64,000 nucleotides of DNA, taken from NCBI RefSeq assembly GCF_988243305.1, contig NZ_OZ547136.1. One strand, given 5' to 3'. Under the pieces are notes generated by a model. That model made no database searches, was not told the origin of the DNA, and saw only the letters and a list, made by a program, of their open reading frames with translations. Shown one piece after another: positions 15,457 through 63,105 of the stretch. Numbering within the stretch: the first letter of the stretch is position 1; the number at the start of each line of letters is the position of its first letter. Position numbers and translations under genes: made by a program.

Positions 15457-15543
15457 TGGTACCCGGAGCGGGACTTGAACCCGCACAGCGCGAACGCCGA
15501 GGGATTTTAAATCCCTTGTGTCTACCGATTCCACCATCCGGGC
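15457..15543 (-). tRNA. leuZ: tRNA-Leu (anticodon UAA)
   Basis: Revcomp reads GCCCGGATGGTGGAATCGGTAGACACAAGGGATTTAAAATCCCTCGGCGTTCGCGCTGTGCGGGTTCAAGTCCCGCTCCGGGTACCA. Confidence 0.9.
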
Positions 15544-15555
15544 TCGGGAAGAAAG

Positions 15556-15629
15556 TGGAGGCGCGTTCCGGAGTCGAACCGGACTAGACGGATTTGCAAT
15601 CCGCTACATAACCGCTTTGTTAACGCGCC
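15556..15629 (-). tRNA. cysT: tRNA-Cys (anticodon GCA)
   Basis: Revcomp reads GGCGCGTTAACAAAGCGGTTATGTAGCGGATTGCAAATCCGTCTAGTCCGGTTCGACTCCGGAACGCGCCTCCA. Confidence 0.9.
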
Positions 15630-15683
15630 AAATTCTTCAGGCCTTTCAGCCAGACATCCGCTTGACGCCGATGTCTTTTAAAC

Positions 15684-15759
<76 letters not shown>

Positions 15760-41700: not shown

Positions 41701-42824
41701 TATTGCATTTCCTCTTTCATTTTCAGGAACTCGGCTTCGGTTTTACCCAGCAGATGGGCGGCGGCGATATCTTCAGCCGACAGCGCAGCGGTGGCGGTCT
41801 TTTTATCCGGCACGGTTACGGTGTCGGTCTGAAGAGTGGTCAGAGCCGCAACCGGCTGGCGGGCGTCAAGCTGTGCAGAAAGTGCCGCAACACCAATCTG
41901 TTGTCCGAGTCCTTCCATGTATCCGCGTTCGCTTTTGAAAATGCGTCCTTCGGACTCGGCCTTATCCAGCAACTGCTCCAGCGTGGTGCAGCCGTGTTGT
42001 GCCGACAACGCGACATATTCGGTACGCAGGGCGTTATACGTCTCAACGGGCACGTATTTCGTCAGATCAATAGTGCCGCCAGTTGGTGTGCCTTTTGCGG
42101 TTTCCAGCTCTGCCGACAGGCTGGCAACCTGCGTTTTCAGGGTGTCGTGCGCATCCGCACGGGTTTTGAGCCCGGTAAGGGCAGACAGCGCCGCCGTGCC
42201 CAGTTCCGGTGTAAATTCGTCACCGTCGGCCACGGTCAGACCGAGCGCCGTCAGCAACTGGCGTAATTGCTCATTCATGGAGGTGTCCTTTAAAGGAGGG
42301 TTTAAGGCGTTATAAAGGTCATCCGCCGACAGTGCGGCGACAGGATTCATGCCAGTCAGACCGGGGTCACCGGTAATAGCCAGCATCCGAAGCTCAACAG
42401 GTTCACCGGTGATTTCGTCATAACCAATCACCGGGGAAAACCAGGGAAATTCGTTATTGCGCAGGTGTTCAATGGCCGGAGGGTTCCAGTCCGGACGCAC
42501 TTCAAAACCCCGCTCTTCACTGAAGCGGAAGTTTTCCGGTGAGGCCATGACAAAACCGGCAGCCGGTGCCGGATGCCCCTTAATCAGGGTCTGGTGGTTG
42601 TAGTCAATTTTTACCGGCTGATTGAGCGCCACAACCCGGGATACCATGCGCTCAACGGCCGCATGGTTAATCAGCCAGCCTTCCGCCGGTTTTTCCGGGC
42701 GACCGTCACGGGCCTTTACCCGACCGGCTGGCATGATCTGACACCAGTCACCGTCCCCGTCTGCGGACAGGCTGATGGCATTCAGAATGGCATAAGCAAG
42801 TTTGGGCGTGTTTTTCGTCTTCAT
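41700..42824 (-). CDS. head maturation protease/scaffold (Mu I-like)
   Basis: 374-aa ORF with coiled-coil C-terminal half, upstream of major head gene. Confidence 0.65.
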   Translation of the reverse strand: MKTKNTPKLAYAILNAISLSADGDGDWCQIMPAGRVKARDGRPEKPAEGWLINHAAVERMVSRVVALNQPVKIDYNHQTLIKGHPAPAAGFVMASPENFRFSEERGFEVRPDWNPPAIEHLRNNEFPWFSPVIGYDEITGEPVELRMLAITGDPGLTGMNPVAALSADDLYNALNPPLKDTSMNEQLRQLLTALGLTVADGDEFTPELGTAALSALTGLKTRADAHDTLKTQVASLSAELETAKGTPTGGTIDLTKYVPVETYNALRTEYVALSAQHGCTTLEQLLDKAESEGRIFKSERGYMEGLGQQIGVAALSAQLDARQPVAALTTLQTDTVTVPDKKTATAALSAEDIAAAHLLGKTEAEFLKMKEEMQ

Positions 42825-43001
42825 TCCGGCAGCATAAGCCGGTGTTTTTCGGGGCCGGTTTTGCGGGACTTCAGAAAGTGCTGACAGGGGAAAAATGAGA
42901 AAGGCGCTTCACGCAGATTTTAAAGCCCGTTAAATACAGGTTAGAAAATCACGACACGCGCCTGAAGAGGGTAAGGTAATGCGTTTGTATACCTTAAACC
43001 A

Positions 43002-43475
43002 TTACGGCGTTTCTGTGGCCTTTTTAAAGCGTTTTCTGATTTCGTCCATGATCTCCTGTTCTGCCACCTGATCAAAGCCCATATACGGACGTGCGCCAAT
43101 GGCCGCCGGTCCCGGTGGCATACCAGGCAGGCCACCCCACTGATGAATGGCCGCATAAGGTTCATTTGATCCAATCAGCGCCCAGGTATCGCCATAATCC
43201 GTGGTCAGGCGGCGGGCCAGATCGCCGTTCAGTGTCAGGATTTTGCCGGGCGTGTATCCCTTACGGGTACGCCACTTGCGGTAAGGATCTGACCAGTCAT
43301 GCCAGCGTTCGCCGTCCGGCTCTTTTTCCTGTTCAAACGCCATTTCTGACGATGACAGAAGACTCTCCGCCACACTGCGGGCCAGGTCTTTTCCGCCGCC
43401 CACAAACTGAAGCCGGGCAAACACCCGCTGGAGACGCGTAACGTCAACAACGACAGTGGCATCAATGGATGACAT
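43002..43475 (-). CDS. virion morphogenesis protein (Mu G-like)
   Basis: 157-aa ORF between F-like and I-like genes. Confidence 0.55.
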   Translation of the reverse strand: MSSIDATVVVDVTRLQRVFARLQFVGGGKDLARSVAESLLSSSEMAFEQEKEPDGERWHDWSDPYRKWRTRKGYTPGKILTLNGDLARRLTTDYGDTWALIGSNEPYAAIHQWGGLPGMPPGPAAIGARPYMGFDQVAEQEIMDEIRKRFKKATETP

Positions 43476-43596
43476 ATTGCCTCCGCATAAAGGATGAATA
43501 TAAAATAAACAGGCGGTCAGTGTACGCTTAACTGGTAAAGTCGGTGCCTGCCTCCGGGTGGATCATGTATGCGGGTTCGACCCCCGCCACTGACCG

Positions 43597-44928
43597 TTAA
43601 TCAATTTGTCCTTCCAGCACCTCAAGCATTCCGCCCCGGATATCCGATTTCAGCTTATCCATATTGATAACCCGGTAAGCATTCACAATCACATCCAGTT
43701 TGTCGGGCTGATGTTTCAGACTGTACGGTGCATTAACGGCAATCTGCACACTGCCATCCTTATTTTCCACGATATACATCAGATTTTTGTGCCGTTTGTC
43801 CCACAGCACCGCTTTTGGCTTTGCCAGCATTGCCGGTAAGCGCCCGAAGTCCTCTGGCATCAGGGCGATGCCGTCATTCTGATGTTTCACACTGTCTGCA
43901 TGGAGCACATTTTTACCGCTCATCGCCAGCAGGCGGGCCGGTGGCGTTCCCGTCCGGCTTTCCACTGCCTGCGCAATGCTTTCAGTCATAAAGCCCAGCG
44001 TGCGGATATCGTTACCACCTCGCCGGGTCTGCATGATGTTTTTTGCCCAGATGCGGAACGCCAGCTGCCGCTCCGGGCTGTTGTTCATCTCCTGAACCAC
44101 CATTTCCCGTAACGCCGGGCTTTTCACCTCGATCAGTTTGCGGATCAGCGCCTGGTCTGTGCCGAACGCTGCCGAGCCGGGGTTATATGACCAGCCCACA
44201 TCCGGTGTCATGGTTCTGGTGCCATCTGAATATGTGGTCACCGGCATTTCTCTGACTTCTCCGGTCTGTTTATCCACGCCAGCCTCAACATTGCGGGTGG
44301 AGAGATGATCCTCACCGGATGAAACGGATAACCCCATTGCATCCAGACGAGCCTGAGACAATGGCCGCACACGGCAGCGGCAGTTCCAGCCATTAGGTGG
44401 GTAGTGTGTTTTCCAGAACGGATCGTCATAGCGGAATACCAGACCGTTAAGGGCGGAATGCGACGGGCGGGTACGGCTGTCCATGACCGCCACATACTGC
44501 CAGAACGGATGCGTGTCCGTGTTGTTCATCATCTGCGTGTAACGCCCGGCATTGTAAGCCACACGGGTGTTCACGTTGTAAATCAGCGCCAGACGACGGG
44601 GACTGCCCAGTTGCACTTCTTCCGCGTTACCGTCGCTGTCCACCACAATCTGCTTTCCCCACCATCCCAGCTTTTGCAGGCGTGGCGTCAGCGTGCGGAT
44701 AAATGCTTTCTGTGAAATTCCCTCATCAATGGCCCGCTGCACTTCGGCCTGTAACGTGGTCACCACATCCAGGCGTGCCGCTTTTGCTGCCGTGAATGAG
44801 CGGGCATGAACATCCGCGGCTGTTTCGAACCAGTTCCAGCTGATATGCGCCCCTTTGACACGGAAGTATGCTACCGCCTCTTTTGAGGGAAGCGTGGCGG
44901 CATAACCTAAATCAATCCCCTGTGTCAT
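43597..44928 (-). CDS. head morphogenesis protein (Mu F-like)
   Basis: 443-aa ORF containing NGWNCRCR motif typical of Mu F/SPP1 gp7 family. Confidence 0.7.
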   Translation of the reverse strand: MTQGIDLGYAATLPSKEAVAYFRVKGAHISWNWFETAADVHARSFTAAKAARLDVVTTLQAEVQRAIDEGISQKAFIRTLTPRLQKLGWWGKQIVVDSDGNAEEVQLGSPRRLALIYNVNTRVAYNAGRYTQMMNNTDTHPFWQYVAVMDSRTRPSHSALNGLVFRYDDPFWKTHYPPNGWNCRCRVRPLSQARLDAMGLSVSSGEDHLSTRNVEAGVDKQTGEVREMPVTTYSDGTRTMTPDVGWSYNPGSAAFGTDQALIRKLIEVKSPALREMVVQEMNNSPERQLAFRIWAKNIMQTRRGGNDIRTLGFMTESIAQAVESRTGTPPARLLAMSGKNVLHADSVKHQNDGIALMPEDFGRLPAMLAKPKAVLWDKRHKNLMYIVENKDGSVQIAVNAPYSLKHQPDKLDVIVNAYRVINMDKLKSDIRGGMLEVLEGQID

Positions 44929-60483: not shown

Positions 60484-60650
60484 ACTTCCTCTATTCTAAA
60501 AAGTTACCCGCGCGGATATTCGTGCGGATATCTGTACGGGTAAATAATAGAACAAACAAAAGAACCAAATCAAGGTATTTTGTTCTTTTTATTCTTTGCG
60601 GTGTTTTTGTTATTAATATCAATAAGATAAATAAAAAGGAACCTGAGAGC
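60484..60650. promoter_or_regulatory. c-ner divergent promoter/operator region
   Basis: 167-bp intergenic region between divergent c and ner; contains IR TTACCCG...CGGGTAA (60504..60543) around direct repeats GCGGATATT/GCGGATATC. Confidence 0.5.
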
Positions 60651-61235
60651 ATGAACATGAAAAACAGTTCTTTTCTCGACGAAGGAAAAGAACCAGTGAT
60701 CGAACGGATTTTTCGTCTTGCAGAGCGTTACAAATCGAGAAGTGAGGCGGCTAGAGCATGGGGAATAAACGTTCAGACATTGCAGAACTACTACAAAAGG
60801 AGAAACAATCAGCCGCCACCACAACCAAGAAAGCACCATCTCCAGAACATTGCAGAAAGAGAACATGTATCTATGGAGTGGCTGGTCAATGGTTATGGTG
60901 ATGAGCCAAGCATGAAAAAAGAACCAATTGAACAAACAAAAAGAACAAAAAAACAAAGAATTGATGATAGTGATTCCATCATCATGAGGGCGTGGGACTC
61001 GCTAACTTCATCTGAACAAGAGATTTTGTCCAACTTATTGATCAGAAAAGGGGCCGAACTACTAACCGTTTTGCTTGATACAGATATTCAAAAACTGCAC
61101 TCATTGAGCGGAGTCAAAAGAGCACTAGCATTGAGTCTACAAGAGTTACCCGATGATACTGTAAGAGAGATTTATGAAGAATGTGAAGCTAAGGTTAATC
61201 ATTTAAATGTAACCCAGAAAAAGGCTGGTGCGTAA
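60651..61235 (+). CDS. c: prophage repressor c (Mu c-like)
   Basis: Start at internal MNMKNSSFLDEGKEPVIERI; HTH-like EAARAWGINVQTLQNYYKR; divergent from ner; ORF-track start 60522 would leave no room for operators. Confidence 0.7.
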   Translation: MNMKNSSFLDEGKEPVIERIFRLAERYKSRSEAARAWGINVQTLQNYYKRRNNQPPPQPRKHHLQNIAEREHVSMEWLVNGYGDEPSMKKEPIEQTKRTKKQRIDDSDSIIMRAWDSLTSSEQEILSNLLIRKGAELLTVLLDTDIQKLHSLSGVKRALALSLQELPDDTVREIYEECEAKVNHLNVTQKKAGA

Positions 61236-61321
61236 GGGAGTGGTGCAATTTTTGTGCTGTAGTACACTCCTTTAAAGACAATCTGGAGAAAAACGTTTTA
61301 AGCCTTTTTAAGCGTCAATCC

Positions 61322-63105
<1,784 letters not shown>

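Follow-up and report, generated by a model that had tools for sequence, protein, structure and literature searches.

The spacer between the head genes F and G of a Mu-like prophage contains a gene for a non-decoding RNA which passes the Rfam threshold for tRNA yet fails in the anticodon-arm feature. Substitutions among its homologues indicate that purifying selection maintains the fold of the element in many Mu-like prophages as well as in small integrative islands. We lean slightly towards the explanation that it is a stand-alone, separately transcribed, non-decoding tRNA mimic which acts via its tRNA-shaped body, likely as a decoy or competitor. Throughout, the window means the whole stretch of DNA analysed (64,000 nt), and loci used for comparison are given by their L numbers.

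The prophage occupies approximately 24.1–61.5 kb of the window. Nearly all of its genes, including F, G, the protease and the major head protein gpT, lie on the minus strand. The tRNA-like gene is on the plus strand inside the 121-nt F-G spacer, sharing its strand with the repressor-like ORF and opposite in strand to the lytic genes (Table 1). The F stop codon is 1 nt from its 3' end, and the TTA of the 3' flank is the complement of that codon. Over its full length, the window F protein shares 59% identity with Mu F. The prophage is collinear with the FORC_069 prophage (L310) and 94–97% identical to it outside the repressor side. The sole long early-end (repressor) stretch without similarity between them is 60522–61324 of the window and 37218–37919 of L310; the two prophages are probably hetero-immune. 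Their insertion sites differ: the window prophage is beside a dcyD-like gene and the FORC_069 prophage is in a fimbrial usher gene.

Table 1. Features of the F-G junction and its surroundings in the window (nt positions; tRNA-type numbering for U8 and A9).
Feature	Position	Strand	Detail
G, virion morphogenesis protein	43002–43475	-	Phage_tail_S family
Predicted sigma-70-like promoter	43477–43506	+	TTGCCT-N18-TAAAAT; ends 8 nt before the stem
tRNA-like RNA gene, 81 nt	43515–43595	+	Rfam tRNA match 43516–43595; family model R1 43515–43595; RefSeq 'tRNA-OTHER'
Terminal (acceptor-like) stem, 5' strand	43515–43522	+	GGTCAGTG; 8 bp with 43588–43595
U8-A9 linker and D-arm	43523–43543	+	CGCTT / AACTGGTA / AAG(T)CG, T43541 bulged; D-arm itself 43525–43543
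Central stub hairpin in anticodon-arm position	43544–43564	+	5-bp stem, 43548–43552 with 43557–43561; loop UCCG
Variable-loop equivalent	43565–43570	+	ATGTAT; (A/G)TGT(N)TAT in most variants
T-arm	43571–43587	+	GCGGG-TTCGACC-CCCGC; abuts 3' strand of terminal stem
Terminal stem, 3' strand	43588–43595	+	CACTGACC; GTTAA next, no CCA
F, minor head / head morphogenesis protein	43597–44928	-	Phage_Mu_F + MuF_C
Repressor-like ORF	60522–61235	+	

The first-pass annotation, made from the letters of the window, had described a tRNA-like 3' half. This label is too narrow, as all of the tRNA body, the 5' strand and the D-arm included, is there apart from the anticodon loop. The acceptor-like stem it gave, GTCAGTG (43516–43522) with CACTGAC (43588–43594), does pair, but it is 8 bp long and not 7. 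The T-arm adjoining the 3' acceptor strand is present as described. The D-arm with GG, which had been called plausible, is also present and follows U8 and A9. That no convincing anticodon arm could be folded is confirmed: the 7-nt anticodon loop is absent and only a 5-bp stem with a UCCG loop stands in its place. It was also right that CCA is not encoded after the terminal stem of the window sequence. As a single sequence the window element folds ordinarily (z = -1.1), so the support for the structure comes from comparative data and not from folding energy.

The Rfam tRNA model (RF00005) gives the element 31.0 bits (E 1.3e-4), above the gathering score of 29. The alignment consists of the acceptor, D and T arms; the anticodon arm is skipped, leaving a 24-nt insert. 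Rfam and ARAGORN searches had been proposed as checks at first pass, with the lack of any hit in tRNA or RNA family searches counting against a tRNA-like element. Rfam gave a match above its gathering score and RefSeq annotation agrees with it, while ARAGORN left the F-G element uncalled: its only calls in the window are the chromosomal tRNA-Leu, tRNA-Cys and tRNA-Gly at 15.4–15.8 kb. These belong to a minus-strand operon at 15457–15759 with tRNA-Gly(GCC), tRNA-Cys(GCA) and tRNA-Leu(UAA), arranged as in the E. coli glyW-cysT-leuZ operon. They are unrelated to the F-G element and were used as an internal control for a family covariance model, R1, built from 25 variants. R1 scores the window element at 92.8 bits (E 4e-23), the tRNA-Gly at 30 and the tRNA-Cys at 21.7 bits. 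R1 searches of Mu and of loci without an F-G gap gave no match.

RefSeq places the label 'tRNA-OTHER' on the same 80 nt, on the strand opposite F and G, in many E. coli genomes. The F-G junction region is found in 174 of 5426 complete E. coli genomes, many of them with this label. The O157 allele differs by one base, G57 to A57, which keeps the purine, and is unannotated among the records listed. The family signature consists of a terminal stem of at least 8 bp, a UA linker, a C+NCUU D-stem with a 3' bulge, a stub hairpin, (A/G)UGUNUAU and the T-arm. The window copy belongs to this family by its R1 score, its F-G position, its antisense strand and its predicted promoter. No description of the family was found in the literature or in Rfam, its public trace being the automatic 'tRNA-OTHER' label only. 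The family accounts for the recurrence of that label and for a 'tRNA-Tyr' call in E. coli genomes that is apparently false, and it could seed a new RNA family model.

Homologues were retrieved by DNA-pattern scans of viral, genome and metagenome collections, and by a protein-guided retrieval of 80 loci encoding F homologues, 76 of which have both F and G. A homologous element is present in the F-G gap of 60 of these 76 loci, always antisense. The F proteins of the carriers range from 100% down to about 42% identity with the window F, and the carriers extend from prophages of the E. coli type to those of the Shewanella type, L198 coming from Shewanella sp. PS-2. In the 16 non-carriers, F and G overlap or lie no more than 17 nt apart. 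The element is absent from phage Mu, whose F stop overlaps the G start; L302 and L307–L309 also lack it although their F is about 80% identical to the Shewanella-type F. As it is missing from Mu and from close relatives of carriers, the element is accessory. The phage collection contained no isolated phage with the element, except two Stx-phage records with an inserted Mu-like phage, and a scan of one genome per species gave only two matches.

The junction itself has been rearranged in some lineages. In L206 (1100–1775, minus strand) the whole junction is present twice in tandem (G 5' fragment, promoter, tRNA-like gene, F 3' fragment), with different stub hairpins, and in L075 G is 98% identical but F only 81%. 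The duplication and these identities show that the element marks a mosaic recombination joint between head-gene modules.

Covariation was analysed in an alignment of 29 distinct sequences, from which the unalignable centre was cut out and to which artificial end anchors were added to hold MAFFT in register. Standard pairs are formed in 96.6% of the cells, and 11 of the 18 pairs have changes on both sides. None of 500 shuffled controls reached any of the measures, and pairing fell to 36–59% when the partner columns were slid. A model-fitted alignment of 64 distinct sequences, which includes a few genuine tRNAs and leans to the modelled structure, has double changes at 16 of 18 pairs. The terminal stem is compensated in 7 of its 8 pairs among the 29 variants and in all 8 in the wider set, the distal pairs taking 4–6 pair types each. 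Its first pair occurs as GC (about half of the variants), UA, AU, CG and GU; across variants the stem is 8–13 bp long and the base after it varies. The D-stem and the T-stem are each 97.9% paired. In the former the second pair occurs as G:C, U:G or U:A and the fifth as U:A or C:G, and in the latter pairs 2 and 3 switch from C:G to U:A and from G:C to A:U.

The loops evolve differently. The D-loop GG is invariant across variants, and the nucleotides of the elbow and core (U8, A9, A14, G18G19, T54-Psi55-C56 and R57, with TTCRA in the T-loop) are fixed or nearly so. The central region is hypervariable: each family variant folded gave one hairpin of 3–10 bp and unrelated sequence. The stub loops are mostly 3–5 nt long (UUCG, UCCG, UCAA, UAAC), often of the UUCG tetraloop type, and some have 10–14 nt. 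In two related loci (L249, L250) the element is 94–95% identical to the window copy, as against 71–73% for the adjacent 400 nt of F and G. A recurrent allele, TTCGACC to TTCGCCC (A58 to C, equivalent to window position 43581), removes the T54-A58 contact. It is carried by prophage and island copies alike (L050, L089–L093, L230, L232, L235, L236, L251, L028c, L221) and hints that constraint is relaxed in some lineages of E. coli.

The readings offered at first pass can be sorted on these data. Coincidence is excluded by the Rfam score, the synteny in 60 of 76 loci and the covariation in three stems. A degenerate remnant is contradicted by the compensatory changes, the retained tertiary nucleotides, the 94–95% identity against 71–73% in the flanks and the promoter-like boxes that lineages have of their own. 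The reading backed by the evidence is the third, a tRNA-mimicking RNA element.

A related scenario, in which the element is a decaying tRNA pseudogene or neutral relic of a functional phage tRNA, kept by linkage and as a conserved recombination joint, would account for the missing anticodon loop and CCA, the commonness of the A58C allele, the loss of the element in several lineages and the mosaic breakpoints at the junction (the L075 identities and the tandem junction of L206). It is also in keeping with the 42–51 bits that some genuine phage tRNAs with the same 8-bp stem and UAC linker reach with the family model. A relic would not be expected to show compensatory changes in 11–16 of 18 pairs and 96.6% pairing, nor to keep canonical loops and a stub which is always a hairpin. 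Nor would it be expected to have a promoter-like box at the right distance in each lineage, to be more conserved than its coding flanks, and to persist from E. coli-type to Shewanella-type prophages. We consider this scenario very unlikely. The narrower idea of a tRNA pseudogene left by integration was rejected: the body is full-length, the stems are compensated, and there is no integrase or att context in the transposable prophage.

The predicted promoter is the sole promoter-like site in 42800–44400. Its TAAAAT box is invariant in diverged E. coli-type loci, in which the spacer sequence varies; the conservation of the -35 hexamer is ambiguous because it overlaps the complement of the G ribosome-binding site. 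The -10-like boxes of other lineages are TATACT, TATAAT, TATGCT and TATAGT, some with an extended TG, and the distance from the box to the first stem base is usually 7–9 nt (range about 4–12). Nearly all variants with readable upstream sequence have a -10-like box of their own, two lineages having a weak box only; one lineage was outside this assessment, its upstream sequence being within G. L282, L284 and L298 have an intrinsic terminator after the element, and the E. coli type has none. Because of this, the E. coli-type transcript could continue antisense into F, and with the F stop 1 nt from the stem its 3' end would need tRNA-type processing. With its predicted promoter and RNA ends, the element looks like its own transcription unit.

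Since the gene is always opposite the late operon and at the same junction, it might instead encode an antisense regulator. Acting in cis or trans, it would pair with the F-G late mRNA (of its own phage, a related superinfecting phage or a helper) and lead to RNase III cleavage or altered G expression, the tRNA shape serving stability and processing only. Lambda OOP RNA is a precedent for antisense action of that kind. Satellite-like islands carry one copy of each of three prophage subtypes, and these copies would complement helper junctions over conserved 25–30-nt blocks. We nevertheless judge this unlikely. A cis-antisense RNA is complementary whatever its sequence and so needs neither covariation nor tRNA tertiary nucleotides, yet both are kept. 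The G ribosome-binding site would not be covered, as the predicted RNA start is about 30 nt upstream of it, and a tight tRNA body pairs poorly. Homologues are also found in places without an F-G junction, and Mu and other relatives have working F and G genes although they lack the element. An anti-Shine-Dalgarno loop was considered separately: the CCUCC of the window stub is complementary to the G ribosome-binding site, but relatives have UUCG, UCAA, UAAC and other loops, and the idea was dropped.

Compared with known RNA classes, the element has the cloverleaf parts of a tRNA (acceptor, D and T arms and tertiary nucleotides), as seen from the RF00005 score and the covariation. The anticodon arm of a decoding tRNA, a stem of about 5 bp with a 7-nt loop, U33 and an anticodon, is not there. 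The resemblance to canonical tRNA (RF00005) covers the acceptor stem, U8-A9, the D-arm with G18G19, the 5–6-nt variable loop and the TTCRA T-arm with its 5-bp stem. Unlike canonical tRNA, the element has a 5-bp stem with a 4-nt loop for an anticodon arm (3–10 bp with any loop in relatives), a terminal stem of at least 8 bp and a 5-bp D-stem with a bulge; it does not encode CCA and is rejected by ARAGORN. Several more specific classes were tried and rejected. tRNA-Sec shares the 8/5 acceptor/T arrangement, but the element has neither a long variable arm nor a UCA loop; the Rfam tRNA-Sec match was below threshold (25.9 bits against 47) and found only in the distant variant L304. No tmRNA was called by ARAGORN and Rfam gave no tmRNA match in the window region, a 17-nt fragment match of 14.8 bits being seen in one relative. 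For the C4 / P4 CI antisense immunity RNAs, Rfam searches at E up to 10 gave only tRNA and a weak STnc480 match in the region.

Another possibility is a chargeable, unusual tRNA-like RNA, to which CCA is added and which is aminoacylated via acceptor or core identity (e.g. His, through G-1:C73) and donates the amino acid outside translation. The core is intact, and the 8-bp stem of the window copy has G-1:C73, G1:C72 and U2:A71, the arrangement of E. coli tRNA-His. The same first stem pairs are not conserved in the family, GC, UA, AU, CG and GU all occurring at the first pair; the base after the stem varies, the stems are 8–13 bp long and CCA is not encoded. We regard charging as extremely improbable. 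His identity through G-1:C73 in particular was rejected, as only about half of the variants have GC as their first pair.

The explanation we lean towards, a tRNA mimic acting via its body, would work as follows. The RNA would be transcribed from its own sigma-70-type promoter, with a start predicted within a few nt of the stem. Intrinsic terminators would end the transcript in some lineages, whereas E. coli-type transcripts would depend on the 3' processing of host tRNAs for their 3' end, to which CCA might then be added. The product would fold as a tRNA body with an 8-bp terminal stem, a D-arm with G18G19, a 5–6-nt variable loop and a TTCRA T-arm. It could not decode, because a generic stub hairpin replaces the anticodon arm. 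Such an RNA may occupy or titrate a protein which recognises tRNA shape, as a decoy or competitive ligand. The partner might be an immune or toxin nuclease that targets tRNA, an enzyme of tRNA processing or the trans-translation system. Action via the elbow and body is the most likely, since the loops and tertiary nucleotides are conserved while the terminal stem and stub drift with compensation. Decoding, a specific aminoacylation identity and antisense pairing all appear unlikely as the mode of action, and the 4–6 pair types at the distal acceptor pairs disfavour a specific acceptor identity.

We infer the decoy mechanism from the conservation pattern alone. A decoy role does not account for the constant F-G position, and the element is dispensable in relatives; both points weigh against this explanation. 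One specific target, a toxin fused to MuF against which the RNA would give immunity, was rejected: Mu F has the same architecture (Phage_Mu_F + MuF_C) and Mu lacks the RNA. A broader proposal is that Mu-like prophages and islands share an undescribed family of anticodon-less tRNA mimics, encoded on the lysogenic-side strand, which bind a tRNA-shape-recognising protein of the host or of a rival phage. We put this forward tentatively and hold it to be doubtful. The RNA could, for example, be an uncleavable decoy for tRNA-targeting immune nucleases or toxins, or a competitor of tmRNA/SmpB. If true, the family would amount to an accessory module made of RNA only, serving defence, counter-defence or lysogeny control.

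Known non-decoding tRNA mimics are a few scattered cases, and a conserved, covarying family with predicted promoters of its own, confined to mobile elements, is unusual. That only the anticodon loop has been given up suggests an RNA-only module which exploits the recognition of tRNA shape by proteins. If so, it bears on phage-host conflicts over tRNA (anticodon nucleases, acceptor-end toxins, trans-translation).

The nearest concept is the tRNA-Other of Bacillus cereus (Rogers et al. 2012, PMC3399842), a pseudo-tRNA outside translation, proposed to have been recruited to a regulatory role. It is likewise a tRNA-like gene tied to a mobile element, but it flanks a pathogenicity island, is part of larger regulatory transcripts and is a single locus in one organism. 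It has no sequence relation to the F-G element, which represents a multi-lineage family with covariation and a predicted promoter of its own.

The tRNA-like domain of tmRNA also combines the top half of a tRNA (acceptor and T-arm) with the lack of an anticodon arm. Unlike tmRNA, the F-G element has no mRNA-like domain and no G3:U70, and it has a full D-arm. The tRNA function of tmRNA reportedly affects the repression of the Mu prophage. The P4 CI RNA and the C4 RNA of P1/P7, both immunity RNAs processed by RNase P, are small phage or satellite RNAs with tRNA-like features, and the islands with arrays of the element also encode Icd-like and Ash-family proteins. The P4 CI and C4 RNAs act via conserved antisense loops, whereas the F-G element has no free loops other than the canonical D and T loops and one variable tetraloop. 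The eukaryotic mascRNA/menRNA and the bacterial YrlA RNAs likewise imitate the elbow of a tRNA without decoding, and tRNA enzymes act on them. mascRNA is released by cleavage from the 3' end of a longer transcript. In YrlA, the tRNA-like module has a closed acceptor end and is attached to a stem that binds Ro. The F-G element differs from both in that its 5' and 3' ends form the acceptor-like stem and in its own predicted promoter.

Beyond the F-G junction, tRNA-like copies are found in integrative islands of about 8.4 kb (L002 2777–3078; L025 13646–21639; L028 1191–9078; also L201, L202, L218 and L221). Each has 2–3 copies in tandem, with T-rich spacers and a promoter before the first copy only, a layout resembling a tRNA operon. 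The gene order is integrase, HTH, Ash-family, Icd-like, DUF4222, RepA helicase, SSB, PerC, Mor/C-family activator, iteron-like GTGAAA repeats and the tRNA-like copies. Where there are three copies, these are three subtypes, each seen in different prophage lineages. The islands may be satellites of Mu-like phages. The same island is inserted in mdtP in one strain and at tRNA-Ile in another, with different integrases; the tRNA-like element was therefore rejected as the attachment site of the islands. The third island copy (L002 2997–3078; L028 8997–9078) is labelled 'tRNA-Tyr' by RefSeq. It has a 6-bp palindromic stem with a 4-nt GUAC loop in the stub, ARAGORN finds no tRNA in it, and the isotype appears to be an artefact of the annotation.

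Cargo accompanies the tRNA-like gene in a second group of Mu-related elements (L051 1–9180; L070 1–6300; L222 1–3675). The tRNA-like gene lies 59–217 nt upstream of a co-oriented variable ORF, and the cassette of both is convergent with the Mor operon. Genes for a MuB-like ATPase, one or more defence-like proteins, Mor, a gpT-like capsid protein and a protein of about 185 aa follow one another in this order; in L222 the gpT-like gene is missing between Mor and the last of these. The cargo ORFs encode a DUF2971 protein (393 aa), an unknown protein of 164 aa and a putative membrane protein of 287 aa. This arrangement raises the idea of a 5' leader or promoter module for 'moron' genes, which marks, stabilises or processes the 5' end of the cargo transcript, the cargo being absent at F-G. 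We find this quite unlikely, as the RNA is conserved at 60 F-G loci without cargo, a terminator follows some variants and the island arrays have no downstream ORF. The defence-like gene of L051 codes for an AAA_13 protein of 786 aa that contains a CPFC motif and may be RloC-like, and those of L070 encode a DUF4238 protein and a 144-aa protein. Coupling of the element to the RloC-like protein was rejected because the sister element L070 has the DUF4238 protein at that place.

Some genuine phage tRNAs resemble the family. An 8-bp stem and the UAC linker are shared with a tRNA of L212 (1979–2053, minus strand) and with the tRNA-Val of L039, and some phage tRNAs with these two features score 42–51 bits with the family model. 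The L212 tRNA (69.6 bits) has the anticodon UUA, which reads the UAA stop, and lies in a phage tRNA cluster beside four tRNA-Leu genes. Descent of the family from a suppressor tRNA was considered and is not claimed, the L212 and L039 genes being ordinary phage tRNAs in unrelated contexts. In large-phage tRNA clusters, a 93-nt tRNA-Ile(UAU) (L007 7197–7289; L009 3775–3867) has a T-arm identical to that of the family and a long extra arm, which is unusual for tRNA-Ile.
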